From a virus (lineage: Duplodnaviria; Heunggongvirae; Uroviricota; Caudoviricetes), in IMG/VR virus record IMGVR_UViG_2541047841_000011: DNA of 51,083 nt; one strand, 5' to 3'. How positions within the stretch are numbered: the first letter of the stretch is position 1; each line of letters starts with the position of its first letter. This document shows positions 1-25,384 of the stretch, one piece after another. The notes beneath the pieces are model-generated. The model worked only from the letters and a program-made list of their open reading frames with translations, did not search any database and was not told where the DNA came from. Position numbers and translations under genes: made by a program.

Positions 1-1005
1 TTAATCCCCCGTGGACACTGCGTGGACACTTACGCCACCTTTCAGCGGATTAAGGGCCACCGCATCCTGCAGGTAATCCGGTGCAAAATGCGCATATGCC
101 ATTGTTTGCTGAATGGTTGCGTGACCAAGAATCTTCTGAAGCGCAATAATGTTTCCTCCGTTCATCACAAAATGGCTGGCGAACGTATGCCGCAGCACAT
201 GTGCAGCCTGGCCTTTTGGTAAATCGGGCTTAACTCTTTTCAGCGCCAGGCAGAATTCCCGGTACTTCACCTCAAACAAGCCGCCTGTTTCTCTGGTTTT
301 GATCGCCTCACAAACTGCCTGCGAAATTGGCACTGTTCTCTTCCGGCCATTTTTGGTTTCAAGAAACGTTACACGGTTATGAACTATCTGTTCACCACGA
401 AGCTTACAAGCTTCACTCCAGCGCGCCCCTGTGCTTAAACACAAAAGCGCAACACGCCAGTAGTCGCCCTCCAGTGTATCGAGCAATAGCGCCACTTCCT
501 TCTGTGACAGGAACGCCATTTCTCGTGGAGATACATAAAGAATAGAAATTCCCCTTACTGGATGTTCTGCATCCCAAAGACCTATTTTTTTCAGCACGGT
601 AAACATTCCGGATAACCGATTCATGTACCTGTTAGCAGATGACGGTTTCAATCCTTCAGCTATCTTTTGAGAACGCCACGCGATAATTTTCAGCTTATCA
701 AGATCCACAGCCTGCATATCAGCGCCAAGCTCATTGATTATGTTGCGCAGTTGTTTTCGGTCTTCTTCCGCCTTACGCCTGTGCTGGCCGTGATACATCC
801 ACCACAACTCAAGCAAATCATTTAGCGTTCGACGATCACGGTAGCCCTGTATATATTCCCGCTTTTCAGCGTTCGCCATGATGTAGCGTTCAGTGGCCAC
901 CGCTACCGATTTTTTGTCAAATACCTTACGCACGCGCTTTCCCTTGCGTCCGTTCGGCCTGATGTCCAGCAAATAACGACCATCTTCGAGCTTCTTAATC
1001 GACAT
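1..1005 (-). CDS. int: Tyrosine integrase, P2 Int-like
   Basis: ORF 1..1020 (TTG at 1018-1020); likely ATG start at 1003-1005 preceded by GGAGGG; C-terminal catalytic box HVLRHTFASHF...GHATIQQTMAYAHF; N-terminus MSIKKLEDGRY resembles P2-type integrases; window starts at its stop codon. Confidence 0.93.
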   Translation of the reverse strand: MSIKKLEDGRYLLDIRPNGRKGKRVRKVFDKKSVAVATERYIMANAEKREYIQGYRDRRTLNDLLELWWMYHGQHRRKAEEDRKQLRNIINELGADMQAVDLDKLKIIAWRSQKIAEGLKPSSANRYMNRLSGMFTVLKKIGLWDAEHPVRGISILYVSPREMAFLSQKEVALLLDTLEGDYWRVALLCLSTGARWSEACKLRGEQIVHNRVTFLETKNGRKRTVPISQAVCEAIKTRETGGLFEVKYREFCLALKRVKPDLPKGQAAHVLRHTFASHFVMNGGNIIALQKILGHATIQQTMAYAHFAPDYLQDAVALNPLKGGVSVHAVSTGD

Positions 1006-1101
1006 TACGAAGCCCTCCAATGAACCGCTCTACAATTTCTCCAGCCTCTTTCCAGCAATAATCAGACCAGACAAAAAGCAGGTCTAACCAGTTTTCTGGC
1101 C

Positions 1102-1422
1102 TCAGCGGGATAATTTTTGGATTGTTTCGGTTGAAACGCGATCTCCCTCCGAATTGCAGGAACCATCAAGAGAGAGAGCCGGAGAAATTTGCCCGACCTC
1201 CGGCATCGTTTCATCTGTTGATAACCAATAAGCATACTTCTTAAATTTAGGGTGTTTCGTAACCTTAAGTAAGGCACCCTCTGTTACTTGCTTCCCCCTC
1301 ACCTCATAGTTAGTTACCGTCCCATAAGGCAGCCCAACACAATCCGCAAACTCCTGGCGGGTCATACCTTCTGCTTCACGAATCAGGCGAAATTTTTCAC
1401 CCATGCTTGACAAAGATGCCAT
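1102..1422 (-). CDS. C: Immunity repressor, P2 C-like HTH protein
   Basis: ORF 1102..1476; probable start ATG 1420-1422 after GGAGGA; HTH segment RQEFADCVGLPYGTVTNYE; upstream of int on same strand and divergent from cox, as in P2. Confidence 0.75.
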   Translation of the reverse strand: MASLSSMGEKFRLIREAEGMTRQEFADCVGLPYGTVTNYEVRGKQVTEGALLKVTKHPKFKKYAYWLSTDETMPEVGQISPALSLDGSCNSEGDRVSTETIQKLSR

Positions 1423-2287: not shown

Positions 2288-2629
2288 ATGAAACAGCAAC
2301 GTAATTCACGCTTTCGCAATGGTGCAGAACGCCACGCTAACCGTTTTGCTACCAGTGCATCACGCAGCAACATCCGCTACAGCCTGAGTGATACACACGC
2401 AACGCCGGATGGCTACCCAGTAAAACAAATCGGCGAGCATGCCTGGCTGATTGAGAAAGCTGGAATCGTGATCCACAAATGCCCACGCAATCCGTTTACC
2501 GGAAACCGCATTTTTGCTCTAAGCAGTGGCAACAATCAGTTCGGGCAGGATTTCACATTATACGAAGCACTTCGCACGGTTGATCGTCTGCTTCGCGGGC
2601 AAAGTTTTATTAAACAGGCTGATTTATAA
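2288..2629 (+). CDS. Hypothetical early-operon protein (113 aa)
   Basis: Intact ORF in early operon orientation; no recognisable motif. Confidence 0.5.
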   Translation: MKQQRNSRFRNGAERHANRFATSASRSNIRYSLSDTHATPDGYPVKQIGEHAWLIEKAGIVIHKCPRNPFTGNRIFALSSGNNQFGQDFTLYEALRTVDRLLRGQSFIKQADL

Positions 2630-2639
2630 CAGGTGCTTT

Positions 2640-2927
2640 ATGACCAAAGACCATGCACAAGGTGTATTTATCCGTTTTATTGATTTTCGCGGTGAACTGT
2701 TATTACGTGCATCCGCTATTGACGGAGTAACTCCGGCGGGTAAAAACGGAGCCGACGAAGCCACTTACGTTTATCTGAACGGCACGCGACTGCTTGTGGA
2801 ACTTCCGTACCAGACCGTACGAGAAATCATTAGCGAAGCTGAAAAGGCACGCCAGGTTAATGGCGATGAACCCTATATCGAAATTATTTGTATGGATTCA
2901 GAAGCTGAAATACAGAAAGCAGATTAA
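2640..2927 (+). CDS. Hypothetical early-operon protein (95 aa)
   Basis: Internal ATG of ORF 2526..2927 with AGGTG RBS; tightly packed with neighbours. Confidence 0.5.
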   Translation: MTKDHAQGVFIRFIDFRGELLLRASAIDGVTPAGKNGADEATYVYLNGTRLLVELPYQTVREIISEAEKARQVNGDEPYIEIICMDSEAEIQKAD

Positions 2928-2935
2928 AGGGCGTT

Positions 2936-3181
2936 GTGATGGGCAAAGAATATAAAACTCTCATTAACAAAGCACTTGAGCGTTTTTATTTTCGCTTAAG
3001 TGCATCAGGCGCTCATGCTGAACGTGCGGCCCGTGACTCATTGACCAGAGCAATCCGAAGTCTGTATGACGTGGCTTTTTACGCTGATGATCTGGATGCA
3101 CTTAACGAACTTTCCGAGCTGATCTGTGCCGCAGAGTGCGGGGAACATATTGAACCGTATAAGCTGGGGAATATCGCATGA
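2936..3181 (+). CDS. Hypothetical early-operon protein (81 aa)
   Basis: ORF with GTG/ATG start at 2936/2939; stop overlaps next small ORF start (ATGA). Confidence 0.5.
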   Translation: MMGKEYKTLINKALERFYFRLSASGAHAERAARDSLTRAIRSLYDVAFYADDLDALNELSELICAAECGEHIEPYKLGNIA

Positions 3182-3291
3182 GTATATTTATCTCATGGCT
3201 TGTTCTGATTATTTCGGTGGCCTGCGCTATTGGGATTATGCGAATTATTCATTCAATAAAAAAGATTGAACGCTTTTTCACTGGCGAATAA
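3178..3291 (+). CDS. Small hydrophobic peptide (37 aa), putative single-TM
   Basis: ATG 3178 overlaps upstream stop (ATGA); translation MSIFISWLVLIISVACAIGIMRIIHSIKKIERFFTGE is one hydrophobic helix plus basic tail; below ORF-track cutoff. Confidence 0.3.
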   Translation: MSIFISWLVLIISVACAIGIMRIIHSIKKIERFFTGE

Positions 3292-3376
3292 CAGAGCAAA
3301 TAAAACCACAGATTAAATAAGAAAATGTAAAACAATCCGCATTCGCGGAGGTATTCGCACACGCCAAGGAGGCGTA

Positions 3377-3580
3377 ATGGCAATTAAGCATTTTCCTGTC
3401 GTTCGTTTTACCTCCAGAGGGCGTGAATACGAAGTCGACGAACGCCTGATTACCACAATCGACAAACACCGTTCAGAAAAGGATGCACATCACATCTATC
3501 TCACTGACGGCACTTACTTCTGCGCCACGAATGTGGTGCGGGTGAACCTTATCCGACAGGTACAGGAGTCACGCAGATGA
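3377..3580 (+). CDS. Hypothetical early-operon protein (67 aa)
   Basis: Excellent RBS AAGGAGG 7 nt upstream of ATG; stop overlaps next start. Confidence 0.6.
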   Translation: MAIKHFPVVRFTSRGREYEVDERLITTIDKHRSEKDAHHIYLTDGTYFCATNVVRVNLIRQVQESRR

Positions 3581-3822
3581 CCATTCTGGACTATATCGCC
3601 GCCAATCCGGGGTGTAGCGGTGGAGAAATCGCCGCAGCACTGAATACCCCAACCACAGCCATTAATGCGGAGTTACGCCGACTCTGGCGCAGCGGTTCAG
3701 TCATAAGAAAAGAGCGCAAAACAGGCGGTCGCTTTTCTTACCAGATAAACCCGATGCCGTTCGGGTGCGGCAATCCACTTACCAACATGTTTAACCAGCT
3801 ACTGAAGGAAGCCAGAGCATGA
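3577..3822 (+). CDS. Small winged-helix-like DNA-binding protein (81 aa)
   Basis: ATGA overlap with upstream gene; segment GCSGGEIAAALNTPTTAINAELRRLWRSG is a helix-turn-helix-like pattern. Confidence 0.5.
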   Translation: MTILDYIAANPGCSGGEIAAALNTPTTAINAELRRLWRSGSVIRKERKTGGRFSYQINPMPFGCGNPLTNMFNQLLKEARA

Positions 3823-4118
3823 GCGCCATCAACCACCAGGAATTACGCGAACTGGCGACTGACCTGCAACGAATGGCAACGCCTCAAAAATTACTGGCGT
3901 TTCGCGCAATGCTCTCGCCGTCTGCTGTGCTGGCGCTGCTGGATGAGCTGGAGCACGCCAGAACCACACCTCTCGCCATTCGCCTGACGCTCCGTCATGA
4001 AATCGAGGATTTCTGCGCGACGTTGGAGGCGCCAGGCGAACCGGAAACGCCGGAAGCAATACAGCAAGAGCTGCTGCAACGCATTGACAAGGTTTTTGAT
4101 TTTTTTCTGAACCACTAA
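3819..4118 (+). CDS. Hypothetical early-operon protein (99 aa)
   Basis: ATGA-coupled ORF, acidic helical protein; followed by 320-bp non-coding region. Confidence 0.5.
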   Translation: MSAINHQELRELATDLQRMATPQKLLAFRAMLSPSAVLALLDELEHARTTPLAIRLTLRHEIEDFCATLEAPGEPETPEAIQQELLQRIDKVFDFFLNH

Positions 4119-4440
4119 GAAACCAGAACATGCACACACAAAAAAACCGCTTGCCATGCCGCAATCAGTCAGGTTACATTTCCGCTGCACCTCACAAAAC
4201 GGGTGCCGGGTTTCGCAGCCTGCTGACTACACAAGCGCACAACCGCGCCAGCGTTTTTTTTGTGCGTACTGTATTGCCACGTTTTTTTCGCGTCAGAATT
4301 ATGGCGGGGCGTACGGGGCCGACTTCGGTCGGGCCGGGTTCTTGTGTAGCCGGTACTGCGAACCTCGTACGTCTCGCCACCCACAGTTTCGCAGCTCTGG
4401 ATGGTGAGTTTTCACAACTTACTACACAAGGGGCCACACC
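4119..4440 (+). other. Structured non-coding region (candidate sRNA/regulatory element)
   Basis: 320 bp without credible ORF inside an otherwise tightly packed operon; hairpin GGCCGAC-TTCG-GTCGGGCC at about 4317..4336; motif TACACAAG at about 4229 and 4424 and inverted as CTTGTGTAG at about 4343; direct repeat GTTTCGCAGC at about 4211 and 4387; T8 run at 4253..4260. Mirror 46644..46965. Confidence 0.4.
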
Positions 4441-4671
4441 ATGGCAAACCGCAAACCACACCGCGCTATCGCGGAGCGTCGTCACATCCAGACTGAAATC
4501 AACCGCAGACTTTCCCGCGCATCACGCGTCGCGCAAATCATGCACATCAATATGCTGCATGAGCGCAGCCACGCACTATCAAACATTTATTCCGCCTCTG
4601 TTTTCAGCTATCTGGCGGATGATCTGCACGAGCTTCAACAGCTCATCCAGCAGCAAAACAAACTCCATTAA
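4441..4671 (+). CDS. Hypothetical protein (76 aa), basic
   Basis: ORF directly after the structured non-coding region. Confidence 0.45.
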   Translation: MANRKPHRAIAERRHIQTEINRRLSRASRVAQIMHINMLHERSHALSNIYSASVFSYLADDLHELQQLIQQQNKLH

Positions 4672-4743
4672 CTCCTGTTCCGGGCCTTTCCTGCACCTTG
4701 CGGCGGGAGGCCTTCGCACATCTGTAACAAGAGGATTGCCGCA

Positions 4744-5109
4744 ATGATTCTCGCCAACGACTTTCTTGAATACCTGCTCAACACAGAACGTGATCTTGCC
4801 GCTCGCGTGCGTGATCGTTATGACATGTACCTGAAATCCCTGCCTGTACCGCAGCTCGCTGACGGAAAGATTGTTATTGATGGTCGCTACATGATTGACA
4901 GCCACGAGGGAAATTACAGGCTTTACCGCATTGAAGGTGGCACCCCGTCCGTTATTGGCATTTACCAGCGCCCATCCTCTGCAATCGTCGATGTGATTGC
5001 CGACAGCATCCGCATCACACATCGCCATGCCGACACAGAAGACACCGTGCTGGAAATTCAGCGGCTGGCTACAGTCTGCCGCGACACCCTGAATGGCATG
5101 ACGAAGTAA
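4744..5109 (+). CDS. Hypothetical protein (121 aa)
   Basis: ORF immediately upstream of gpA with AGAGGA RBS-like sequence. Confidence 0.5.
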   Translation: MILANDFLEYLLNTERDLAARVRDRYDMYLKSLPVPQLADGKIVIDGRYMIDSHEGNYRLYRIEGGTPSVIGIYQRPSSAIVDVIADSIRITHRHADTEDTVLEIQRLATVCRDTLNGMTK

Positions 5110-5115
5110 ATCACT

Positions 5116-7938
5116 ATGACGGCAGAGTACATCAGGGGCTGGCAACAACCGCGCCACGCAGTGGGGCGTGAAGGAACGGGGATCCCCGCTCCTGAATCCG
5201 CGCTTTCCTCCTGGCTGGATGCCTACCGGGTAGAGAACGAGCACCGCCAGGAAATGGCTGATGCGGCGTTCTCCGCAACGCCGCTGGGCAACCTGATTAA
5301 TAAAAGCCTGAACGCACAGGAAAAACAGGACAAAACCATCACACTGGCAGGAGATGCCAGAAAACAGGCACGCGGCGCGGTGGATGAAGCCATGGCCTCG
5401 CTGCGCCTGCTGCCGTCCTATCTGCGCGATCCGCTTATTCGCCACCTCTCCTTCCTGCGCAAAAAACAGGAAGCCGATCGTCAGAAAGGCAAAAAGAGCT
5501 GGCAGGCTGAACGCTACGCGCGCGGAAACCTGCGCAAAATATTCGAACGTCTGGATCGCACCGATCACCGCTGGCTGACACAGGGTTATCGCTCCCTTGC
5601 CGGACGCGAACGCCTGGACGATTTGCTTTACCTGCCGCAGCTCAACAAACACCAGATACAGACACTGGCCACCATGACGGCGGCGATGTTCAGCAGCACC
5701 TTCGAAAAACTCTGCGATGGCTTTGGCGCGACCGATGGCGAACTGACCATGGATGTAACGCTGAAGGCGTATCAGATGCTGGCCCGCATGGCGTTACACC
5801 TGCACGCCATGCCTCCACATTATGACGCACTGACAACAGACAAAGACCGGAGGAACGAACCGGACACGGAGCTGCTGCCGGGCGCAATCCTTCGCCTGAC
5901 CTGTGCAGAATGGTGGAAACGCAAACTGTGGCTGTTACGTTGCGAGTGGAGAGAAGAACAACTCCGCGCCGCCTGTCTGGTTTCCAGAAAAACATCGCCC
6001 TATCTGAGCCAGGACGCGTTAAGCGAGTTTCGCGCACAGCGCGAGAAAACACGCGATTTCCTGAAAAGTTTCATGCTGGAAAATGAAGACGGGTTCACGA
6101 TTGATCTCGAGACGGTGTATTACGCGGGAGTAAGTAACCCGGTTCACCGTAAGGCAGAAATGATGGCCACCATGAAGGGGCTGGAACTTCTGGCCGAAGC
6201 CCGTGGCGACAAAGCGGTGTTTCTGACTGTCACCTGCCCGTCAAAATACCACGCCACAACAGAGAACGGTCATCCGAATCCCAAATGGAACGGGGCCACC
6301 ATGCGCGACTCCAGCGATTACCTGGTTAACACGTTTTTTGCGGCGGTCCGCAAAAAACTGAACCGCGACGGTCTTCGCTGGTATGGCATCCGCACGGTGG
6401 AGCCTCACCATGACGGCACCGTGCACTGGCATATGATGGTCTTTGCGCATCCGGAAGAAATCGACAGCATCGTGGCCATCACCCGCGATATTGCCATTCA
6501 GGAAGACCGCCACGAGCTGGGCAATGATATTACTCCGCGCTTTAAGGCGGAGTATGTCGACGGCTCAAAAGGCACACCAACCAGCTATATCGCGACCTAC
6601 ATCGGAAAGAACCTGGACAGCCGCGCCGTGGATGGCATCGACCCGAAAACGGGCAAGCCACGCGTTGACCACGAAACCGGAAAATCAATGGCCGAGAGTG
6701 TGGAGCGCGCCATCGGCTGGGCGCGCCTTCATCGGGTCCGCCAGTTCCAGTTCTTTGGCATCCCCTCCCGTCAGGTGTGGCGTGAACTGCGCCGCCTTGC
6801 CAGCCAGATGGCACGCAACCCGGAAGGCCCGCAACGACTGAAAGATGACGCAATGGATGCGGTACTCGCTGCCGCCGATGCCGGGTGTTTTGCCACCTAC
6901 ATTGAAAAACAGGGCGGCGTACTTGTTCCACGCAAAGACTACCTGATTCGCACCGCCTACGACCTCGCAGATGAGCTGAATGATTACGGCGAACAGAGCG
7001 TACAGATTTACGGGATCTGGTCACCACTCATCGGGGAATCCTCCCGTGTGTGCACGCATCCGGATAACTGGAAACTGGTAAGACGTAAACCGGAAACGGA
7101 AGACAGCGCCCGCGAAAATGGTTTTGACCTTCAGGGCGGCCCTGCCGCCCCTTGGACTCGTGGCAATAACTGTCCCCGTGTACAGGAAACGGACAACAAC
7201 GGGACAGAACAGCCGGAAGAACGGCCAGCACCGTGGCCGCAGCTCCCTGACGGCGTTGAAGTGAACGAATGGATGCGCTCACTGAAACGACACGAACGCC
7301 GGGCGCTGATGCGTTCGCTTCGTGACAAACAGGCAAAAAACAGCAGCGATGAAATGCAGAGCTGGACACAGAGCCGCAAACAGCAGCGGCCTTTGCCTGA
7401 TAACCACGAATTACTCGCTAAAGAATGGCGGGAGTCTGCTGAATCTCTCGGCCTGCATATCGGTGAACAACAGATGCAGCACCTGTTACGGGGCGGCAGT
7501 CTGTACGTTGACGGCAGCATCATTGCACCGCAGGGATTTGAAATTGTACGCAAACCGGATACCCGCCCGGACAGCCGAATCACGCAGCTCTGGCAGCGCC
7601 TGAGCCGTAATCACGGCGTAAGCAGCACGGAGATCCGCCATAACCCGGTCTCCAGCTATCTGGCACAGCTCGGGGCATCAGACCCCGAAGCCGCCGCACG
7701 CCTGGCATCCACACTTCAGCAGGTCCAGAACACCATGAAAACACCCGTTACCGTGCTTTCTGACATGCTGCGCGCCATTCGTGACGCAGAGCACGCACAG
7801 AGAATCAGAGAAACCACTGAACGCGCCCGCCGCAAAGCAAACCTGCTGAGGACTGGCCTGACCAGTGGAAACAAAAAACAGACAGAAACGGGATTCACAA
7901 ATCCCGTAAATGAGCAAAAAACGCGCCGCGATATATGA
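5116..7938 (+). CDS. A: Rolling-circle replication initiator (P2 gpA-like HUH endonuclease), 940 aa
   Basis: HUH motif TVHWHMMVF and paired-tyrosine motif YIATYIGKN (YxxxY) typical of superfamily-I RCR initiators; position matches P2 A; about 300 extra C-terminal residues. Confidence 0.88.
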   Translation: MTAEYIRGWQQPRHAVGREGTGIPAPESALSSWLDAYRVENEHRQEMADAAFSATPLGNLINKSLNAQEKQDKTITLAGDARKQARGAVDEAMASLRLLPSYLRDPLIRHLSFLRKKQEADRQKGKKSWQAERYARGNLRKIFERLDRTDHRWLTQGYRSLAGRERLDDLLYLPQLNKHQIQTLATMTAAMFSSTFEKLCDGFGATDGELTMDVTLKAYQMLARMALHLHAMPPHYDALTTDKDRRNEPDTELLPGAILRLTCAEWWKRKLWLLRCEWREEQLRAACLVSRKTSPYLSQDALSEFRAQREKTRDFLKSFMLENEDGFTIDLETVYYAGVSNPVHRKAEMMATMKGLELLAEARGDKAVFLTVTCPSKYHATTENGHPNPKWNGATMRDSSDYLVNTFFAAVRKKLNRDGLRWYGIRTVEPHHDGTVHWHMMVFAHPEEIDSIVAITRDIAIQEDRHELGNDITPRFKAEYVDGSKGTPTSYIATYIGKNLDSRAVDGIDPKTGKPRVDHETGKSMAESVERAIGWARLHRVRQFQFFGIPSRQVWRELRRLASQMARNPEGPQRLKDDAMDAVLAAADAGCFATYIEKQGGVLVPRKDYLIRTAYDLADELNDYGEQSVQIYGIWSPLIGESSRVCTHPDNWKLVRRKPETEDSARENGFDLQGGPAAPWTRGNNCPRVQETDNNGTEQPEERPAPWPQLPDGVEVNEWMRSLKRHERRALMRSLRDKQAKNSSDEMQSWTQSRKQQRPLPDNHELLAKEWRESAESLGLHIGEQQMQHLLRGGSLYVDGSIIAPQGFEIVRKPDTRPDSRITQLWQRLSRNHGVSSTEIRHNPVSSYLAQLGASDPEAAARLASTLQQVQNTMKTPVTVLSDMLRAIRDAEHAQRIRETTERARRKANLLRTGLTSGNKKQTETGFTNPVNEQKTRRDI

Positions 7939-8014: not shown

Positions 8015-8974
8015 ATGAAAATTTGTATCGACGACGGCTCCACCAACATCAAGCTGGCATGGACTGAGAATGGCGAACGCCGCAACGCCATCAGCCCGAA
8101 CAGCTTCAAGTCGGAATGGTCTGCGCCGTTCGGTGGCATGCAGCCCGCGAACTACATGCTTGATGGCGTGCGCTATGGTTTTGATCCGGTCAGCGATCGC
8201 TTTGTCCAGACGACCGACACGCAATACCAGTACAGCGATGTGAATGTAATCGCCATTCATCACGCGCTGGTCAAATCAGGCATCACGCCACAAGAGGTGG
8301 ATGTGGTTGTCACCCTGCCACTGAGCGAGTATTTCGAGACAAACGCACAGCCGGACATGGCCAACATCAACCGCAAAAAAGCGAACGTTATGCGCTCGGT
8401 GGAGTACCAGAACGGCGAAGCATTCACTATCCGTAACGTGCGGGTTATGCCTGAATCCATTCCGGCTGGCTTTAAAGCACTGGCTGACATGAGTCCGTTT
8501 GAATCCCTGCTGATTGTGGATTTAGGCGGAACCACGCTGGATGTGGCAAAGGTTCAAGGGCAACTGGCAGGTATCAGCCAGGTGTTTTGCGATCCACACG
8601 TAGGCGTTTCCCTGATGGCCGATGCCGTACTGTCGGTGATGGCCACTAACGGTATGCGCACCAGTCACCACATCGCCAATACCATTATCGAACATCGCCA
8701 TGATGAAGCCTGGCTGCGCCAGCACATCCACAATGACGCGCATTACGCCAGCCTGATGGCGGTTATTCGTGAAAAGGAAGAAACACTGAAACAACGCGTG
8801 ATCCGCGCGCTGGCGGTTTTTTCGGGTTACGGGCGGGTGATGGTTGTCGGTGGAGGGGCGGAGATTGTGGCACCCGCTATCCGCGAAGTCTGCGGAGTTA
8901 ATGCGACTTTCATCGCGGACGGGGTGCCACAGTTTGCTCTGGTTAATGGGCTGTACGCAATGGACAAGGAGTAA
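8015..8974 (+). CDS. parM: ParM/StbA-like actin-fold ATPase
   Basis: Actin-fold motifs IDDGSTNIK (phosphate 1), VDLGGTTLD (phosphate 2), VGGGAE (adenosine); length 319 aa as for ParM. Confidence 0.78.
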   Translation: MKICIDDGSTNIKLAWTENGERRNAISPNSFKSEWSAPFGGMQPANYMLDGVRYGFDPVSDRFVQTTDTQYQYSDVNVIAIHHALVKSGITPQEVDVVVTLPLSEYFETNAQPDMANINRKKANVMRSVEYQNGEAFTIRNVRVMPESIPAGFKALADMSPFESLLIVDLGGTTLDVAKVQGQLAGISQVFCDPHVGVSLMADAVLSVMATNGMRTSHHIANTIIEHRHDEAWLRQHIHNDAHYASLMAVIREKEETLKQRVIRALAVFSGYGRVMVVGGGAEIVAPAIREVCGVNATFIADGVPQFALVNGLYAMDKE

Positions 8975-17216: not shown

Positions 17217-17711
17217 ATGAGTATGGTTGCCAGAACCAACCCCGGCCCCGCAGAGGACGACATCACCGATACCGATGATGGTGATACCCGTATTTCAGCG
17301 GGCGCATTCTGGCCGGATATTGTGCTGCGTGAGCTGCGTCTGGCGATACGACTGCCGGGCCGTGTGACCACCTCCCGCCTGCTGCATACCGCCACCGGGG
17401 CCGTGGCACACGTTACCCGCGAGCTGGAAGCGTGGCAGCAGGAACAGCAGGCGGCTGGCCATCAGACGCTGGCCGATGTTCCGGCACCCGTAATTAACGG
17501 AGAAAGCGTCAATCTCTGGCACTGGCGCAATGCTGTTTATACCGCCACGCGCGCCCTGATTCTGGAGCGTTATCGTGATGCAGACACAACGGACAAGGGC
17601 GACCGCCGGGCGGACGCTCTGGATATACAGACATCGGATTTGTGGCGTGATGTGAGCTGGGCCATCTCTGACATTCTGTGCCGCCCGCGAATCTTTGCGG
17701 AGTTGTGCTGA
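17217..17711 (+). CDS. L: Head completion/stabilisation protein (P2 gpL-like)
   Basis: ATG at 17217 with AGGAG RBS inside ORF 17208..17711; synteny. Confidence 0.8.
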   Translation: MSMVARTNPGPAEDDITDTDDGDTRISAGAFWPDIVLRELRLAIRLPGRVTTSRLLHTATGAVAHVTRELEAWQQEQQAAGHQTLADVPAPVINGESVNLWHWRNAVYTATRALILERYRDADTTDKGDRRADALDIQTSDLWRDVSWAISDILCRPRIFAELC

Positions 17712-17911
17712 TGAAAGTGAAGGCACTGGAAGGCGACACCGTGGATTCGCTCTGTTTCCGGCACTACGGCACGACGCAGGGCGTCACCGAAAAGGTGCTG
17801 GATGCCAACCCCGGACTCTGTCAGCAGGTATTTCTGGACGCCGGGCAGGAAGTGGAGATGCCGGAGCCGGAGAAGAAGAAACGAGAAATGATTCAGTTGT
17901 GGGGGGAGTAG
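17711..17911 (+). CDS. X: Tail protein X (P2 gpX-like)
   Basis: 66 aa MKVKALEGDTVDSLCFRHYG...; TGATG overlap with L. Confidence 0.75.
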   Translation: MKVKALEGDTVDSLCFRHYGTTQGVTEKVLDANPGLCQQVFLDAGQEVEMPEPEKKKREMIQLWGE

Positions 17912-17913
17912 CA

Positions 17914-18237
17914 GTGAGCACCATTCAAACAGGGATCACAGAGCAGGTTATTGCATGGCTCTTTGACCACCTGCCAACGGTGTATGCAGTAGGCGCGGCG
18001 GTCAGCATTTCCGCGCTGATGAGTCTTTATGACGGACGAACACTGGTTCAGACCGTAACGGGATCGCTGGCGTGCGGCGTTCTTGCCATGGCTGTGGCCG
18101 GGTCGTTGCGCTTCTTCGGTTTTCCTGAAGATGCCGTGACGTTTATCGGCGCATCAATCGGTTTTATGGGGGCAGAGAAAGCACGCGATAAGGTTATTGC
18201 GGCCTTTAATCGCAGGGTGAAGGAGAAGGACGAATGA
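17914..18237 (+). CDS. Holin (three predicted TM helices)
   Basis: GTG start after gpX stop; hydrophobic segments LPTVYAVGAAVSISALMSLY, GSLACGVLAMAVAGSLRFFGF, AVTFIGASIGFMGA; basic C-terminus; precedes endolysin. Confidence 0.6.
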   Translation: MSTIQTGITEQVIAWLFDHLPTVYAVGAAVSISALMSLYDGRTLVQTVTGSLACGVLAMAVAGSLRFFGFPEDAVTFIGASIGFMGAEKARDKVIAAFNRRVKEKDE

Positions 18238-18626
18238 GCAACACATTTAAATTCAGCAGCCGGAGCGAAAAGAATTTGCAGGGCGTAAATCCTGATCTGG
18301 TGAAAGTGACCCGACGGGCACTGGAAATTTCGGAAGTGGATTTTGGTATCACCGAAGGGTTGCGCAGTCGTTACCGCCAGAAGCAACTTGTGGCCACAGG
18401 TAAGAGCCAGACCATGAACAGCCGCCACCTTACGGGACATGCCGTGGATGTTGTGGCTTATATCGGCAGCCAAGTGTCATGGGAATGGCCGCTGTACGAA
18501 AAAATCGCAGCCGCATTCAAACAGGCCAGCCGGGAACTGAATATTCCGGTGGAATGGGGCGGCGACTGGAAGACCCTGAAAGACGGACCGCATTTTCAGT
18601 TACCACACGGAGCCTATCCGGCATGA
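18234..18626 (+). CDS. Endolysin, peptidase M15-type (L-Ala-D-Glu / D-Ala-D-Ala peptidase fold)
   Basis: 130 aa; Zn-binding signature SRHLTGHAVDV and DGPHFQ; ATGA overlap with holin. Confidence 0.8.
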   Translation: MSNTFKFSSRSEKNLQGVNPDLVKVTRRALEISEVDFGITEGLRSRYRQKQLVATGKSQTMNSRHLTGHAVDVVAYIGSQVSWEWPLYEKIAAAFKQASRELNIPVEWGGDWKTLKDGPHFQLPHGAYPA

Positions 18627-19030
18627 AGCTCTGGCCAACGCTTGGCGTTGCTTTCCTTCTGATTGCCGGATGGGGAACATCCATGCGTCTGTCATGGTCG
18701 CTGGGCCGGGAGAACGCCAGAAACGAAGCGCAGGCCAGCACCCTGAAACGTACCGCCGACACCCTGAATATCATCAGCGCCGGGGTACAGGATATGCAGC
18801 AGGTGCTGGCGCAACTCCGCGTGGAAAATCAGCAACGCAATCAGGACGGAGAGGCAAGACGTGAACAGCTACGCAACGATATTGCAAAAGATGAATGCGC
18901 CCACGCTTTGCCTGACGCTCGTTTTACTGACAGGCTGCGCAGGCACGCAGAACGCGCTACGGCCAGCGCCGTCAGTCCGGCTTATACCGCAGACGCTGAC
19001 CATACCGGTAACGCCTCCCCCCTTCCCTGA
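18623..19030 (+). CDS. i-spanin (Rz/LysB-like)
   Basis: Internal ATG of ORF 18479..19030; N-terminal TM (MKLWPTLGVAFLLIAGWG) then coiled-coil-like periplasmic domain. Confidence 0.6.
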   Translation: MKLWPTLGVAFLLIAGWGTSMRLSWSLGRENARNEAQASTLKRTADTLNIISAGVQDMQQVLAQLRVENQQRNQDGEARREQLRNDIAKDECAHALPDARFTDRLRRHAERATASAVSPAYTADADHTGNASPLP

Positions 19031-19181
19031 CACTCCCACATGGGGAAATCTCGGTATATGGGGCGACCGCCTTCTGGATGCACTGGAAACCTGTAACGCG
19101 GATAAACGGGCCATTGAATTACTGGAACAGCGCAGGCTGCAACGACTGAACAACGAGGACAACAACCATGCTGAAAACTGA
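18891..19181 (+). CDS. o-spanin lipoprotein (Rz1/LysC-like), overlapped out of frame with i-spanin
   Basis: Lipobox LLTGC then proline-rich segment; starts inside the i-spanin gene and extends past it, as in P2 lysB/lysC. Confidence 0.55.
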   Translation: MNAPTLCLTLVLLTGCAGTQNALRPAPSVRLIPQTLTIPVTPPPFPDTPTWGNLGIWGDRLLDALETCNADKRAIELLEQRRLQRLNNEDNNHAEN

Positions 19182-19635
19182 TTCCCTGCGTGAAGCCATG
19201 ACCCGTTCATGCCGATGGTGTCAGGCCAACCCGGAAAAATTCACCATTTTCGTGGAGAGCGGCAACATTGAAACGACCGGAGAAACGCCCTCGTTTGTTT
19301 ACCGCTATCAGATGGTGATGTTTGTCATGGATTACGCCGGGGAGCTGGACGACCTCACGCTGCCGCTACTGGCGTGGTTATCCGAAAATCAGCCACAGTT
19401 GTTGCTCAATCCGGAGCGTAATCAGGACATCAAATTCTCCGCCGTTATCAATGACGATGACAGCGCCGATCTCCTGTTTACGCTCCCCCTGCGGGAACGC
19501 GTTCGCATTACGCGCAGCAGTCAGGGGACACCGCAGGCAGAGCACCTGCCGGAGCCAAAACCCCGTCTGCCATCTTCCGAAGGCGACTGGTCGCATATAT
19601 TCCAGGATGTGACGTGGGGTGAAAGCGATGGATAA
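19168..19635 (+). CDS. R: Tail completion protein (P2 gpR-like)
   Basis: 155 aa, N-terminus MLKTDSLREA; synteny. Confidence 0.8.
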   Translation: MLKTDSLREAMTRSCRWCQANPEKFTIFVESGNIETTGETPSFVYRYQMVMFVMDYAGELDDLTLPLLAWLSENQPQLLLNPERNQDIKFSAVINDDDSADLLFTLPLRERVRITRSSQGTPQAEHLPEPKPRLPSSEGDWSHIFQDVTWGESDG

Positions 19636-20263
19636 GGCATTCACCCGTGTGGATGAAACCTTTGAGGCCATCCGCGACAGCCTGAATCAGCAGGCCATCA
19701 ATAACATCGCCAGAAAGCTGGCACAGGATTTACGCCGCGCCCAGCAGGCGCGCATCCGGTCACAGAAAGCGCCGGACGGGACCGCATGGACACCACGCAG
19801 ACGCCGCGTAACCCGGATACAGGAGCGCATTCGCTTTATCTGGAATAACGAAGCACGCACGCTGAAAAACTGGCATCACGACACGGGGAAATACGGGCGA
19901 ACCATTACCGGGTGGGATGAGGATAAAAACAATATCCGCACGTTTTACCGGGATGACATCGACCGTTTTCTGGAAATACGCACCCGGCGCATCAACCAGG
20001 ACAGCACAAAGCGCGTCCCCATGTTCGTAAAACTGCGCACCGCCCGCTACCTGAAAGCCCGTGCAGATGCTTCCGGTGTGACGGTGGGTTACAGCGGCGT
20101 GGCCGCACGTATTGCACGCGTTCATCAGTTCGGTGAGCGCGATCAGGTTGCGCCGGGCATTTTCACCGATTACCCGGTACGTGAGCTGCTGGGTATCAGC
20201 CAGGCAGATGAGCGCCTGATTTATAACACGGTGCTGGGCCGGATTGCGGAGGCTGTACGGTGA
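19628..20263 (+). CDS. S: Tail completion / virion morphogenesis protein (P2 gpS-like)
   Basis: ATG at 19628 inside ORF 19619..20263; synteny. Confidence 0.78.
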   Translation: MDKAFTRVDETFEAIRDSLNQQAINNIARKLAQDLRRAQQARIRSQKAPDGTAWTPRRRRVTRIQERIRFIWNNEARTLKNWHHDTGKYGRTITGWDEDKNNIRTFYRDDIDRFLEIRTRRINQDSTKRVPMFVKLRTARYLKARADASGVTVGYSGVAARIARVHQFGERDQVAPGIFTDYPVRELLGISQADERLIYNTVLGRIAEAVR

Positions 20264-20841
20264 GCGCAGAACTCATGCGACTGCTGAGCAACATCATCCG
20301 TACCGGGATCATCTCTGAAGTTGATGAGGAATCCTGGTGCGTGCGCGTTCGCAGCGGCGAACTGGAAACAGGCTGGCTGCGCTGGAACACCACGCGCGCG
20401 GGAGCCTTCAATGTATGGCTGCCGCCATCACCAGGCGAACAGGTGGTAATTGCCTGCATTGGCGGCAACCCGGAAACCGCCATGATAATTGGCAGCCTGT
20501 GGAGTGATGCCAGTCCGGCCCCCGGCAAAAGCCTGAAAGAAATCGTGGTCAGCGCGCCGGATGGCGCGGTGTTCCGCTACGACGCGGAAGCAGGCGCACT
20601 GAGCGCCAGCGGCATGAAAACAGCCACCCTGCAGGCATCCGTCAGCGTGACACTGGACACGCCCGTCGTGGAATGCACAGACCTTCTGAGAACGGCGACG
20701 CTTGACGTCACAAAAGGAGGAAAGATGAGCGGCAATATCACGCACAGCGGCGGCAACTTCACCTCAAACGGCATTACCGTGCATACGCATAAACACGGTG
20801 GCGTGAAAGGCGGCAGCGATTCGACAGGAGGCCCGCAGTGA
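20260..20841 (+). CDS. V: Baseplate spike/hub protein (P2 gpV-like)
   Basis: 193 aa; C-terminal GNITHSGGNFTSNGITVHTHKHGG as in gpV; GTG start overlaps S stop. Confidence 0.9.
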   Translation: MSAELMRLLSNIIRTGIISEVDEESWCVRVRSGELETGWLRWNTTRAGAFNVWLPPSPGEQVVIACIGGNPETAMIIGSLWSDASPAPGKSLKEIVVSAPDGAVFRYDAEAGALSASGMKTATLQASVSVTLDTPVVECTDLLRTATLDVTKGGKMSGNITHSGGNFTSNGITVHTHKHGGVKGGSDSTGGPQ

Positions 20842-21188
20842 CAACCCGCTACACAGGAATGAATCCGGACGGGACGGGAAACCTGAACGATATGGAGCAC
20901 CTGAAACAGTCAGTCAGGGATATCCTGACCACCCCGCTGGCAAGCCGGGTTATGCGACGGGAATATGGCAGCCTTGTGCCTGATTTGATTGACGAACCCA
21001 TGAATAACACCACGCGTCTGCAATGCATGAGTGCTGCCGTGATTGCGCTGACACGATGGGAACCCCGCATTGCCCTGGATGCCATCGACGTTGTCTGGAA
21101 AGCGGGAGGCCGCGCCGGGGTGACGCTGTCGGGCACTGTCATGCAGACCATGCAGAATGTTGAATTAACCATCACGCTGAGGGAGTAA
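20838..21188 (+). CDS. W: Baseplate wedge protein (P2 gpW-like)
   Basis: 116 aa, MTTRYTGMN...RVMRREYGS as in gpW. Confidence 0.85.
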   Translation: MTTRYTGMNPDGTGNLNDMEHLKQSVRDILTTPLASRVMRREYGSLVPDLIDEPMNNTTRLQCMSAAVIALTRWEPRIALDAIDVVWKAGGRAGVTLSGTVMQTMQNVELTITLRE

Positions 21189-21191
21189 ATC

Positions 21192-22088
21192 ATGCCTGCC
21201 GTTGACCTTTCCCAGTTACCGGAACCCGCCATCATCGCGGAGCCTGACTTTGAGGCAATTCTGGCTGACACAAAGGCCATGATGATTGCGGCTTATCACG
21301 CCGAACAGCGTGAAGCCGTTTCCGCCGCGCTGGAGCTGGAATCGGAACCCCTGAACGTTATCGCCCAGACAACAGCGTTTCGTGAAATGCTGTTACGCCA
21401 GCGGGTCAATGAGGGGGCACGCGCCTGCATGTTAAGCCACAGCGCCGGGACAGACCTGGACAACCTCGCGGGCAATATGAACACAAAGCGCCTGACCATC
21501 ACTCCGGCAACGGATACCACCGACGCAGTGATGGAAAGTGACACCTCGCTGAGACTGCGGGCGCAGCGGGCGTACGATGGCCTGAGTGTTGCTGGCCCGT
21601 CAGGTGCATACGAGTATTTTGCCCGCAGCGCCAGCGGTCTGGTGCGTGATGCGCGGGCTATCAGTCCGTCTCCGGCAAATGTGACGGTTTCCATTCTGTC
21701 CACTGAAGGCGACGGCACAGCAACGGAGGCGTTGCTTAATACCGTTCGCGCCGTTCTGAATGCAGAGGACACCCGCCCGGTGGCCGACCGCCTGACCGTA
21801 CAGAGCGCCAGAATCGTGACATGGCGGCTGAATGCAAAACTGTACTTTTACCCCGGTCCGGAATCCGAACCTATTCTGGCTGCGGCGGAATCGTCGTTCA
21901 GGAAGTGGCTGGCTGAGCAGGGGCTTATCGGTCAGGACGTGGCGTTGTCCGCCATTGCTGCCGCACTGCATGTGCACGGTGTGCAACGCGTGGAGATAAT
22001 CGAACCCACACAGAATATGGCCATCAGCGACATACAGGCGGCGCGCTGTGAGTCATTCACCATCAGCGAAGGTGGGCGCAATGAGTAA
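21192..22088 (+). CDS. J: Baseplate assembly protein (P2 gpJ-like)
   Basis: 298 aa; GGGAG RBS; synteny. Confidence 0.88.
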   Translation: MPAVDLSQLPEPAIIAEPDFEAILADTKAMMIAAYHAEQREAVSAALELESEPLNVIAQTTAFREMLLRQRVNEGARACMLSHSAGTDLDNLAGNMNTKRLTITPATDTTDAVMESDTSLRLRAQRAYDGLSVAGPSGAYEYFARSASGLVRDARAISPSPANVTVSILSTEGDGTATEALLNTVRAVLNAEDTRPVADRLTVQSARIVTWRLNAKLYFYPGPESEPILAAAESSFRKWLAEQGLIGQDVALSAIAAALHVHGVQRVEIIEPTQNMAISDIQAARCESFTISEGGRNE

Positions 22089-22611
22089 TTCGTTGTTACC
22101 ACCATCAGCCAGCAATTTCATGCGTTGTGCCGAAGCCGTCGGAACACGCATTACAGACATTCCGGTAGACCTCAACACACTGTGGTCGCCGGATACCTGC
22201 CCGGTGCATCTGCTGCCCTATCTCGCCTGGGCATTTTCCGTTGACCGCTGGGATCGCAACTGGCCGGAAGAGACAAAGCGACAGGTTATTCGTGATGCAT
22301 GGCTGATACACCGACACAAAGGGACCATCAGCGCACTGCGCAGGGCCATTGAGCCGCTGGGATACCTCATTCGCGTGTCTGAGTGGTGGGAGTTCGGCGG
22401 AGAACCGGGAACATTTACCGTTGAAGTCGGCACACTGGACAGTGGCGTGACGGAGGAAATGTATCTGGAAATGGAGCGGTTGATTGCTGATGCCCGCCCG
22501 GTCAGCCGCCACATGACAGGGCTGAATATCATTCAGGAAATTCCGGGGGATATTTTCGCAGCGGCGGCAACTTATGACGGTGAAGTTATTACCATTTATC
22601 CGGACGATTAA
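22081..22611 (+). CDS. I: Baseplate protein (P2 gpI-like)
   Basis: ATG at 22081 inside ORF 22048..22611 gives 176 aa; overlaps J stop. Confidence 0.83.
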   Translation: MSNSLLPPSASNFMRCAEAVGTRITDIPVDLNTLWSPDTCPVHLLPYLAWAFSVDRWDRNWPEETKRQVIRDAWLIHRHKGTISALRRAIEPLGYLIRVSEWWEFGGEPGTFTVEVGTLDSGVTEEMYLEMERLIADARPVSRHMTGLNIIQEIPGDIFAAAATYDGEVITIYPDD

Positions 22612-22613: not shown

Positions 22614-24848
22614 ATGAGTACCACAACACGAAAATTTAAAACCGTTATCACCGATACAGGTGCAAAAAAATTAGCTCAGGCAGCCGCGCCAGATGGTAAG
22701 CCTGTCCGCCTGACTCATATGGCCGTGGGCGACGGTGGCGGCACGTTGCCCACACCAGACAGTAAGCAGACCCGTCTGGTGCATGAGGTGTGGCGACACA
22801 CTGTTAATCGCGTCATCCTGGACGCAACACATCAGAACCGCATTATTGCGGAGCTGGTTATACCTCCTGAAACGGGCGGATTCTGGATCCGGGAAATTGG
22901 TGTATTTGATGAGCACGGCGATTTAATCGCGGTGGGCAATACTGCCGAAAGTTACAAGCCAACCGTTGCCGAGGGGTCCGGACGTGCACAAACATTTCGC
23001 ACCATTCTGACCGTATCCAGCACTGCCAGCGTGGCGCTTACCGTGGATAACACCATGGTGATGGCCACAGTGGATTACGTGGATGACAAACTGAAAGAGC
23101 ATGAACAGTCACGACGTCACCCGGATGCCTCGCTGACCGCAAAAGGCTTTGTTCAACTCAGTAGCGCCACTAACAGCGATTCTGAAACGCTGGCCGCAAC
23201 GCCGAAAGCGGTTAAGGCCGCGTATGACCTGGCTAACGGAAAATATACCGCTCAGGACGCCACGACGGCACGAAAAGGGATAGTCCAGCTCAGCAGTGCA
23301 ACCAACAGCACGTCTGAAACGCAGGCTGCAACGCCGAAAGCAGTAAAGGCGGCATATGACCTTGCTAACGCAAAATATACCGCTCAGGACGCAACGACGG
23401 CACGAAAAGGGATAGTTCAGCTCAGTAGCGCCACTAACAGCCCGTCTGAAACGCTGGCTGCGACACCAAAAGCGGTTAAGGCGGTAATGGATGAAACGAA
23501 CAAGAAAGCGCCTTTAAACAGTCCTGCGCTGACCGGAACGCCAACAACGCCAACTGCGCGACAGGGAACGAATAATACCCAAATCGCAAGCACGGCTTTC
23601 GTTATGGCTGCGATTGCCGCCCTTGTAGATTCGTCACCTGACGCACTGAATACGCTGAACAAGTTAGCGGCGGCGCTGGGAAACGACCCGAATTTTGCGA
23701 CCACCATGACTAACGCGCTTGCGGGTAAGCAACCGAAAGATGCCACCCTGACGGCGCTGGCCGGGCTTGCTACTGCGGCAGACAGGTTTCCGTATTTTAC
23801 GGGGAATGATGTCGCCAGCCTGGCAACCCTGACAAAAGTCGGGCGGGATATTCTTGCGAAATCGACCGTTGCTGCCGTTATCGAATACCTCGGTTTACAG
23901 GAAACGGTAAATCAGGCTTCTGGCGCATTACAGAAAAACCAGAACGGCGCAGATATTCCGGGTAAAGATACCTTCACCAAAAACATTGGTGCCTGCCGCG
24001 CATATAGCGCATGGCTGAATATTGGTGGCGATAGTCAGGTCTGGACAACTGCGCAATTTATTTCGTGGCTGGAGAGTCAGGGGGCATTTAACCATCCTTA
24101 CTGGATGTGCAAAGGCTCATGGGCTTATGCAAATAATAAGGTCATTACAGATACAGGTTGCGGAAATATTTGTCTTGCAGGTGCTGTGGTGGAAGTTATT
24201 GGCACTCGCGGCGCAATGACCATACGCGTTACTACGCCGAGTACGTCCAGCGGCGGCGGAATTACTAACGCTCAATTCACCTATATTAATCATGGTGATG
24301 CTTATGCTCCTGGCTGGCGACGAGACTACAACACGAAAAACCAGCAGCCTGCATTTGCTTTAGGGCAAACAGGACGCAGGGTCGCAAATGATAAAGCTGT
24401 TGGCTGGAACTGGAATAGCGGTGTTTATGATGCAGATATCAGTGGTGCATCGACATTAATCCTCCACTTCAATATGAATGCGGGGAGTTGCCCTGCTGTA
24501 CAGTTCCGCGTGAATTACAGGAACGGCGGTATCTTTTATCGTTCAGCGCGTGATGGTTATGGCTTTGAAGCTAACTGGTCAGAGTTTTACACCACAACCC
24601 GCAAACCCTCTGCGGGGGATGTTGGTGCATATACGCAGGCAGAATGTAATTCAAGGTTTATTACAGGTATTCGCTTGGGCGGTCTGTCATCTGTTCAGAC
24701 ATGGAATGGTCCCGGCTGGTCTGACAGGTCAGGTTATGTCGTTACGGGTTCAGTTAACGGAAACCGTGATGAATTAATTGATACAACTCAGGCAAGGCCA
24801 GTTCAGTATTGCATTAATGGGACGTGGTATAACGCGGGGAGTATTTAA
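22614..24848 (+). CDS. H: Tail fibre protein H, variant 1 (constant N-terminus plus variable C-terminus Hv1)
   Basis: 744 aa; N-terminal part with 44-aa SSATNS...ATPKAVK repeats identical to the 842-aa mirror ORF up to ...[10 protein letters not shown]; C-terminus diverges after the 26-bp crossover site at 23878..23903. Confidence 0.9.
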   Translation: MSTTTRKFKTVITDTGAKKLAQAAAPDGKPVRLTHMAVGDGGGTLPTPDSKQTRLVHEVWRHTVNRVILDATHQNRIIAELVIPPETGGFWIREIGVFDEHGDLIAVGNTAESYKPTVAEGSGRAQTFRTILTVSSTASVALTVDNTMVMATVDYVDDKLKEHEQSRRHPDASLTAKGFVQLSSATNSDSETLAATPKAVKAAYDLANGKYTAQDATTARKGIVQLSSATNSTSETQAATPKAVKAAYDLANAKYTAQDATTARKGIVQLSSATNSPSETLAATPKAVKAVMDETNKKAPLNSPALTGTPTTPTARQGTNNTQIASTAFVMAAIAALVDSSPDALNTLNKLAAALGNDPNFATTMTNALAGKQPKDATLTALAGLATAADRFPYFTGNDVASLATLTKVGRDILAKSTVAAVIEYLGLQETVNQASGALQKNQNGADIPGKDTFTKNIGACRAYSAWLNIGGDSQVWTTAQFISWLESQGAFNHPYWMCKGSWAYANNKVITDTGCGNICLAGAVVEVIGTRGAMTIRVTTPSTSSGGGITNAQFTYINHGDAYAPGWRRDYNTKNQQPAFALGQTGRRVANDKAVGWNWNSGVYDADISGASTLILHFNMNAGSCPAVQFRVNYRNGGIFYRSARDGYGFEANWSEFYTTTRKPSAGDVGAYTQAECNSRFITGIRLGGLSSVQTWNGPGWSDRSGYVVTGSVNGNRDELIDTTQARPVQYCINGTWYNAGSI
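23141..23490 (+). repeat. 132-bp tandem repeat (2.6 units) inside tail fibre gene
   Basis: Units start at 23141, 23273, 23405; encode 44-aa fibre repeat [44 protein letters not shown]. Mirror 27594..27943. Confidence 0.85.
23878..23903. other. Left crossover site for a Gin/Hin/Cin/Pin-family serine invertase (gix-like)
   Basis: TTATCGAATACC-TC-GGTTTACAGGAA, a 12-2-12 imperfect palindrome matching the Din-family site as I recall it (Mu gix about TTATCCAAAACC-TC-GGTTTACAGGAA), at the constant/variable junction of the fibre gene. Confidence 0.75.
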
Positions 24849-24850
24849 CG

Positions 24851-25384
24851 ATGATGCACTTAAAAAACATTACTGCTGGCAACCCTAAAACAAAAGAGCA
24901 ATACCAGCTAACGAAACAATTTAACATCAAATGGCTTTATTCAGAGGATGGAAAAAACTGGTATGAGGAACAAAAGAATTTCCAGCCAGACACTTTGAAA
25001 ATGGTCTATGACCATAACGGCGTTATTATTTGTATTGAAAAGGATGTTTCAGCAATTAATCCGGAAGGCGCAAGCGTCGTTGAATTACCTGATATTACAG
25101 CAAATCGCCGTGCTGACATTTCGGGTAAATGGATGTTCAAAGATGGCGTAGTGGTAAAGCGAACTTATACCGAGGAAGAGCAGAGGCAGCAGGCGGAAAA
25201 TGAAAAGCAAAGCCTGCTACAGCTCGTCAGGGATAAAACCCAGCTATGGGACTCACAGCTACGGCTGGGCATCATTTCCGACGAGAATAAACAAAAATTA
25301 ACAGAGTGGATGCTCTTTGCGCAGAAAGTCGAATCTACAGACACTTCCAGCCTGCCAGTAACGTTTCCCGAACAACCAGAATGA
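24851..25384 (+). CDS. G: Tail fibre assembly protein, variant 1 (P2 gpG / Mu U-like)
   Basis: 177 aa, MMHLKNITAGNPKT...[14 protein letters not shown]; immediately follows Hv1. Confidence 0.85.
   Translation: MMHLKNITAGNPKTKEQYQLTKQFNIKWLYSEDGKNWYEEQKNFQPDTLKMVYDHNGVIICIEKDVSAINPEGASVVELPDITANRRADISGKWMFKDGVVVKRTYTEEEQRQQAENEKQSLLQLVRDKTQLWDSQLRLGIISDENKQKLTEWMLFAQKVESTDTSSLPVTFPEQPE

Follow-up and report, generated by a model that had tools for sequence, protein, structure and literature searches.

Among the described systems related to the G segment of phage Mu and its invertase Gin are the C segment of P1/P7 with Cin and the P segment of e14 with Pin. Enzymes of this type (Gin, Hin and Cin) act on inverted sites within one supercoiled molecule, together with Fis and an enhancer, and exchange between molecules is strongly disfavoured. 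Phage P2 has neither an invertible cassette nor an invertase, and its FI-FII-E-T-U-D genes share the strand of H. Invertible fibre cassettes of the Gin type are already known from P2-family prophages. Clonal E. coli cultures that harbour P2-like prophages contain the two orientations side by side (PMC4272514). In the context of assembly, SPAdes contigs that are palindromic throughout have been classed as assembly errors (PMC9455707).

In this study, a stretch of 51,083 nucleotides of a virus assigned to the Caudoviricetes (IMG/VR record IMGVR_UViG_2541047841_000011), here called the window in its full length, was analysed. Among isolated phages, Escherichia phage P88 (Xuanwuvirus P88, Peduoviridae; NC_026014.1) is the closest, its DNA being 96.3% identical over 79% of window positions 1-25000. 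P88 has the gene order of the window, with ParM, and likewise an invertible H/tfa cassette; in P88 this cassette is followed by a DNA invertase and then by a tail-core operon whose orientation is the reverse of that in P2. P88 differs from the window in its integrase (44% identity), immunity region and cargo locus, while its cassette lies in the other orientation and carries a different second fibre tip. Judged from its sequence, the window is very probably a fold-back (palindromic) contig that hides the right flank of the element, rather than a truncated phage.

The genes of the unique half of the window are ordered int, C-like HTH, cox, early genes, A, ParM/stability, cargo, Q, P, O, N, M, L, X, holin, endolysin, LysB/LysC, R, S, V, W, J, I, H and tfa. 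The features up to gene I are given below, where AH21F008 denotes a chromosome (NZ_CP196263.1) carrying a near-identical prophage.

1..1005, minus strand: P2-type tyrosine integrase of 334 aa, identical to AH21F008 WP_000023402.1
1102-1431, minus strand: C-like HTH repressor of the immunity switch (Pfam HTH_3, below the gathering cut-off; AH21F008 annotation)
1536-1823, plus strand: Cox, immunity switch (Pfam Phage_Cox; AH21F008 annotation)
2288..7938, plus strand: early operon (DUF4761, DUF4754, wHTH, Ead/Ea22-like, derepression protein and gpA)
5116-7938, plus strand: replication endonuclease gpA, part of the early operon
8015..9293, plus strand: ParM-like segregation ATPase and plasmid-stability protein
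9377..10756, minus strand: cargo pair of low GC content (about 36%), a 280-aa membrane protein and a DUF4760 protein
11405..14202, minus strand: portal (Q-like) and large terminase (P-like)
14357..22611, plus strand: late genes, comprising scaffold O, capsid N, small terminase M, L, X, the lysis set (holin, endolysin and LysB/LysC) and R, S, V, W, J and I

The late genes were called from the annotation of the near-identical genome and from the Pfam families found on identical proteins (Phage_GPO_N, Phage_cap_P2, Phage_term_smal, Phage_GPL, Phage_tail_X, P2_Phage_GpR, Phage_tail_S, Phage_base_V, GPW_gp25, Baseplate_J and Tail_P2_I). The head and baseplate genes of the P2 family are present in their conserved order from Q to tfa, the cargo pair sits where P2 has its old/tin locus, and the unique half is a P2-family (Peduoviridae), P88-like (Xuanwuvirus) prophage of E. 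coli. No protein of the window is diagnostic, since each one recurs on some 170 to 1,000 or more E. coli contigs. Additionally, seven strict matches to Ogr-type TGT-N12-ACA boxes were counted in the window, none of which lies in the P/O divergent region or upstream of V.

Base-by-base comparison revealed that the arms at 1-23896 and 27188-51083 are exact reverse complements, with no mismatch over 23,896 nt. An inverted-repeat search returned arms of 1-23987 and 27097-51083 at an identity of 100% after rounding; within these, positions 23897-23987 and their partner stretch differ at 15 positions by base-by-base comparison, which is real partial homology between the start of Hv1 and the start of Hv2. 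The centre of the palindrome is unique and consists of a cassette of about 3.3 kb in the order Hv1-tfa1-tfa2'-Hv2': tfa1 is followed by tfa2 and Hv2, both encoded on the minus strand, beyond which the whole left side recurs in mirror image. The initial annotation had described this turn after tfa1 into an inverted cassette and a mirrored arm, and its description is correct. The ends of the contig are symmetrical, as each is located at the integrase stop codon, base 1 of the window being the last base of that codon. The features of the cassette and of the second arm are as follows.

22614..24848, plus strand: tail fibre H in the G(+) state, constant part and Hv1, 744 aa
23878..23903, plus strand: left 26-bp crossover site, TTATCGAATACC-TC-GGTTTACAGGAA, forming the G(+) junction
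23892..27192: invertible segment with Hv1, tfa1, tfa2 and Hv2, 3,303 bp between the central dinucleotides
24851-25384, plus strand: tfa1
25413-25940, minus strand: tfa2
25942-27192, minus strand: Hv2
25942-28470, minus strand: H(Hv2) of 842 aa in the G(-) state, the H constant region joined in frame to a different tip
27181..27206, plus strand: hybrid site, TTCCTGCAAACC-GA-GGTATTCGATAA, with the inner half of the true right site and the outer half of the left site
27198..51083, minus strand: mirrored arm that repeats 1-23886 in reverse complement and occupies the position of the real invertase/tail-core/ogr/attR flank

The left crossover site differs from the Mu site (TTATCCAAAACCTCGGTTTACAGGAA) at three of 26 positions. 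Two inverted 26-bp sites with TC and GA centres are found in the window, although the outer half of the second is not its native one. The right site of AH21F008, a G(+) genome, reads TTCCTGCAAACC-GA-GGTTTTAGATAA, while in L005, a near-identical E. coli prophage in the G(-) state, the left and right sites read TTATCGAATACC-TC-GGTTTGCAGGAA and TTCCTGTAAACC-GA-GGTTTTAGATAA, respectively. Between these two genomes a single inner half-site base (A versus G) moves with the segment, as is expected for exchange at the central dinucleotide. In reverse complement, the hybrid site at 27181-27206 is identical to the G(-) left junction of real genomes, and L005 matches the reverse complement of the window without a mismatch for about 4 kb around that junction. 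Both orientations occur in real genomes with their inner half-sites swapped, and in each the fibre gene is intact and has its own chaperone, H-Hv1 (744 aa) being paired with tfa1 and H-Hv2 (842 aa) with tfa2. The window itself contains the left junction of the G(+) state and, in reverse, that of the G(-) state; each is real, but they belong to different molecules, since one molecule can hold only one of the two.

The genome of AH21F008 illustrates what follows the cassette in an ordinary prophage. Its element occupies about 3,683,900-3,721,231, between pdxB and flk, measures 37.2 kb and, like the window, is in the G(+) orientation with H-Hv1, tfa1, tfa2 and Hv2. Identity is 100% over window positions 22600-27096, and over 1-27197 the two sequences differ by four substitutions (5138, 13307, 16673 and 17373) and one 1-nt indel near 1918. 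They part at 27198, inside the 26-bp gix-like crossover site, where the window turns into the reverse complement of the H constant region while AH21F008 continues to the invertase. Unlike the window, AH21F008 has no mirrored arm: its right site leads to the invertase (plus strand), then to an opposite-strand block of gpU, tape measure, E', E, tube and sheath, and beyond the sheath to gpD and ogr (both plus strand), hok, two cargo genes (zinc-ribbon and TagO-like) and attR. The window thus lacks the last 9.8 kb of this element, of which 7.8 kb extend to the ogr stop codon. That the mirrored arm has taken the place of the true right flank, as had been proposed from the letters of the window, is supported by this match to 1-27197 followed by a real flank. 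A 20-nt att core repeat (TTTTCATCAACAAGGATTTT) flanks the 37.2-kb element; its attL copy is located 201 nt to the left of window base 1, and both att cores fall outside the window. The invertase of the near-identical genomes is a protein of 199 aa (Resolvase and HTH_7) with 81% identity to Mu Gin and 98% to P88 gp43, and its gene starts about 185 nt past the Hv2 ORF and about 65 nt past the right crossover site. A truncation of gpD in AH21F008 (266 aa in RefSeq) was considered and rejected, as it reflects a start-codon call only and tblastn recovers an intact frame of 369 aa.

The absence of the right-flank genes from the window was assessed at the protein, DNA and domain levels. When P88 gp43-gp53 (invertase, U, T, E', E, FII, FI, D, hok and gp53) were compared with the whole window by tblastn, none matched better than E=0.17, while the positive controls H, tfa and int matched strongly. 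The same proteins of L005, together with its 86-aa Ogr_Delta protein, gave nothing below E=0.13 in the window (tblastn), and the 7.9-kb right flank of L005 had no match there by blastn. A Pfam scan of the small early ORFs identified Cox, DUF4761, DUF4754, wHTH and derepression protein, and no Ogr_Delta domain was found among them. The contractile tail core of the P2 family (FI, FII, E/E', T, U and D) and the Ogr/Delta activator are accordingly missing from the window, so that the initial annotation, which had listed sheath, tube, tape measure, gpU, gpD and ogr as absent, was correct for this stretch of DNA. Its further statement that the late operons lack their activator describes the contig only. 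The gene order of P2, which it had taken as the expectation, does not apply to this lineage, in which the order is invertase, inverted U-T-E'-E-FII-FI, then D and ogr. A DNA invertase, which that annotation did not mention, is likewise absent: no serine (resolvase-family) invertase of the Gin/Cin/Pin/Hin kind adjoins the cassette in the window, with neither a tblastn nor a blastn match, and it is the key absent gene. The lack of a tail core and late activator pertains to the contig and not to the phage.

Public assemblies present the same picture of the right flank. The 842-aa H-Hv2 protein is indexed in 291 blocks and the 744-aa H-Hv1 protein in 342 blocks of public assemblies (E. coli contigs). 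Among the displayed H loci, which come from the 24 blocks with the longest contigs, no palindromic place was found, and every locus that extends past the cassette continues with Resolvase/HTH_7, P2_GpU, PhageMin_Tail and P2_GpE and, as far as it reaches, with Phage_tube, Phage_sheath, Phage_GPD and Ogr_Delta. In one of these loci, an IS4 element interrupts the invertase after the cassette. Two draft contigs break off at or close to the turning point, one ending in ...TTCCTGCAAACCGAGGT, the equivalent of window position 27197, and the other 17 nt before that equivalent. Among 5,426 complete E. coli genomes, coverage of the 7,085-nt core of the palindrome (22000-29084) never reaches 80%; for AH21F008 (G+) and for NR1430 (G-) it is 74%, at 99.9% identity. 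An IMG/VR scan with the 60-nt junction returned no exact match. In a scan with the 38-nt inner end, two short IMG/VR contigs and one metagenome contig matched, none of which is palindromic; the three represent a true invertase flank, another gix and fibre module, and an ordinary G(-) junction.

How such a contig could arise may be outlined as follows. The real element would be a P88-like E. coli prophage of roughly 37 kb, whose H gene ends in a Mu-G-like cassette that is presumably flipped by a Gin-family serine invertase, and both cassette orientations would have been present in the sequenced DNA. Each end of the 3.3-kb segment would then be joined in the assembly graph to the H constant region as well as to the invertase flank, and with both orientations among the reads a fold-back path would be permitted. 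An assembler could proceed from the H constant region through the segment into the reverse complement of the H constant region, using real edges only. Such a path would yield identical arms and would drop the 9.8 kb from the invertase through attR, which would be expected on another contig of the same assembly. We infer that only reads or read pairs spanning at least 3,310 nt (23889-27198) could have forbidden it. On the evidence of the near-identical genomes, the same right flank would be linked to the cassette in the source sample. Two observations correspond to what is expected of an artefact: the arms are identical and the contig ends symmetrical, and each junction is real while their combination is absent from the 5,426 complete genomes at a core coverage of at least 80%. 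The join was almost certainly made by the assembler and not in a cell.

The palindrome might alternatively be a real head-to-head dimer, in which a Gin-like invertase joined the right site of one copy to the left site of another, the copies being prophage or phage on a sister chromosome or a replicating circle and the sequenced part being arm-segment-arm'. A recent real duplication would give the same sequence, and the junction lies at the central dinucleotide with correctly recombined half-sites, as an intermolecular event of the enzyme would leave it. Moreover, a deposited complete genome, that of E. coli O111:H21 15A (NZ_CP077477.1), shows palindromes in a related prophage that are hinged on gix-like sites. 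This record was the single near-exception in the search of 5,426 genomes with the palindrome core; its prophage contains perfect palindromes of 17.5 kb and 27.5 kb, three of whose four junctions are on gix-like sites, while the record origin lies on a fourth. The palindromes are nested around that origin, and the record also has an abrupt join inside gene A; both features point to a troubled assembly, the first being typical of one. The record implies that the artefact also affects finished assemblies or else that structures of this kind can exist. If the head-to-head reading were true, structures such as those of 15A would be genuine invertase-driven palindromic duplications and not assembly errors. 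However, a dimer is not needed to account for the junction, which is an ordinary G(-) left junction reversed, its chromosomal product would be dicentric, and none of the 5,426 complete genomes has this palindrome. Because the junction is an ordinary G(-) junction and Gin-type enzymes are biased towards intramolecular action, a head-to-head dimer is disfavoured and considered very unlikely.

The absence of the right-flank genes from the window is also what a defective remnant would display, i.e. a source genome that had truly lost its invertase, tail core and ogr and could neither build tails nor switch on its late genes, and defective P2-like remnants are common in E. coli. A deletion, however, does not generate a perfect mirror of 23.9 kb, the break is at a crossover site without a deletion scar, and the left 27.2 kb differ from the intact 37.2-kb prophage by only the four substitutions and the 1-nt indel listed above, so that true loss of these genes is regarded as extremely improbable. 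It should be added that the G(-) junction shows past inversion and not a currently working invertase in the sample, and that it could stem from a second copy fixed in the other orientation. An origin in the library or in the reads, whether by multiple-displacement amplification, a missing hairpin adapter or nanopore template/complement read-through, would fit the form of the sequence in so far as fold-back chimeras of amplification or reads are typically inverted, perfect palindromes, and the 15A record suggests that long-read assemblies can carry palindromes in the same phage family. Yet random fold-backs turn anywhere and with little or no loop, while the loop observed here is exactly the 3,303-bp segment and the switch occurs at the central dinucleotide with half-sites exchanged as in an inversion; a chimera of this kind has an exceedingly small chance of being correct. 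The position of the turn, precisely on the crossover dinucleotide, and the exchange of the half-sites were the grounds for rejecting a random fold-back chimera as well as a simple deletion.

If the window is read as a fold-back contig, its main value lies in the quality control of assemblies. At face value, the 51-kb record would score as an oversized or duplicated viral genome, or as a defective prophage without tail core and late activator, and about 40 genes would be counted twice. As a biological feature the truncation is not real; what is incomplete is the contig. The phase-variable nature of the turning point predicts that the missing 9.8 kb would be found on a contig beginning near GGTTTTAGATAATGGCC, the outer flank of gixR. 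As a by-product, the sequenced DNA would have held both fibre orientations, active inversion being the simplest explanation. Perfect arms hinged on gix-like sites may furthermore serve as a screen for assemblies, including deposited 'complete' genomes.

In comparison with the known systems, the cassette resembles the G segment of Mu: window positions 23878-26004 are 92-93% identical to S'v-U'-U of Mu and to the equivalents in P1, P7 and D108, and this homology begins exactly at 23878. The inverted crossover sites differ from the corresponding Mu sites at three of 26 positions, and both systems provide two alternative C-termini for the fibre, with a separate assembly chaperone for each. Unlike the Mu G segment and the P1/P7 C segment (Cin), the cassette of the window resides in a P2-family phage; its Hv2 is unrelated to Sv of Mu, no invertase accompanies it, and only one of its two sites is authentic, the other being the hybrid. 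P2 shares its structural gene families from Q to H/G with the window and those of FI, FII, E, E', T, U, D and ogr with the near-identical genomes, in which, unlike in P2, U-T-E'-E-FII-FI are on the opposite strand between the invertase and D. Finally, the window resembles palindromic contigs of short-read assemblies in that the whole contig is self-complementary with identical duplicated genes, and differs from them in that its turning point has a specific cause, namely a phase-variable segment that would have been caught in both orientations.

Short-read assemblies are routinely broken by the phase-variable cassette segment. One E. coli draft contig (L013, GCA_053186885.1) ends at the crossover site, i.e. 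at the equivalent of window position 27197, while that of a second locus (L008, GCA_043306235.1) ends 17 nt short of it. As regards the ends of the window record, positions 1 and 51083 both coincide exactly with the final base of the stop codon of the integrase gene, a point 201 nt inside of the attL core of the near-identical intact prophage in E. coli AH21F008. This suggests provirus trimming, with the record cut where a gene ends, and not a natural terminus of the contig or an att site.

Perfect, nested palindromes were also observed within a related P88-like prophage of E. coli O111:H21 strain 15A, the chromosome of which is designated 'complete' in RefSeq (NZ_CP077477.1), in the following region:

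5,177,198-5,207,197 and 1-52,124 of NZ_CP077477.1: 15A prophage region (loci L016, L022 and L015)

A 27.5-kb palindrome pairs 5179670-5207197 with its mirror at 301-27827, and a 17.5-kb palindrome pairs 30490-47984 with 10333-27827. Sites resembling gix are located at 5179674, 27816 and 30494; a fourth coincides with the record origin (position 5). Additionally, gene A of this prophage contains an abrupt join, adjacent to a uvrC/pgsA-side fragment. A real rearrangement is a possible explanation of these palindromes, but they more likely reflect an assembly error like the one proposed for the window.

In one genome (L007, GCA_964043755.1), at 15035-16684, an IS4-family transposase lies within the invertase gene, leaving a 100-aa invertase remnant, and this prophage copy should thus be locked in the G(-) orientation. 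The window differs from AH21F008 by a 1-nt indel at ~1918, downstream of cox; the stretch equivalent to 4130-4396 (region 4130-4440) is labelled in RefSeq as an 'ash family' pseudogene lacking its C-terminus.

Two further gene pairs were identified:

9377-10756 (mirror 40328-41707), opposite strand: low-GC cargo island of two genes, at the P2 old/tin position
8015-9293: genes for a ParM-like actin ATPase and Plasmid_stab_B, inside the integrated P2-family prophage

The cargo island (GC ~36%) encodes a DUF4760 protein together with a 280-aa multi-pass membrane protein for which PADLOC gives a weak Csx27 match (E=1e-5); the pair, present in hundreds to >1,000 E. coli contigs, may constitute an exclusion or defence module. 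The ParM-like and Plasmid_stab_B genes are common to P88 and the window prophage, a possible sign that plasmid-like maintenance is open to this lineage.

The constant region of the tail fibre gene H carries the following repeat:

23123-23518 (mirror 27600-27995): tandem repeat, 3 units of 132 nt

These units encode three Phage_fiber_2 repeats of 44 aa each and display 79-88% and 63-67% identity to the reference copy. The cassette (23878-27192) is a mosaic: S'v-U'-U of Mu, D108, P1 and P7 is 92-93% identical to Hv1-tfa1-tfa2, whereas Hv2 (25942-27192) is without a counterpart in Mu and has ~96% identical copies in O103, O145 and O111 E. coli prophages.
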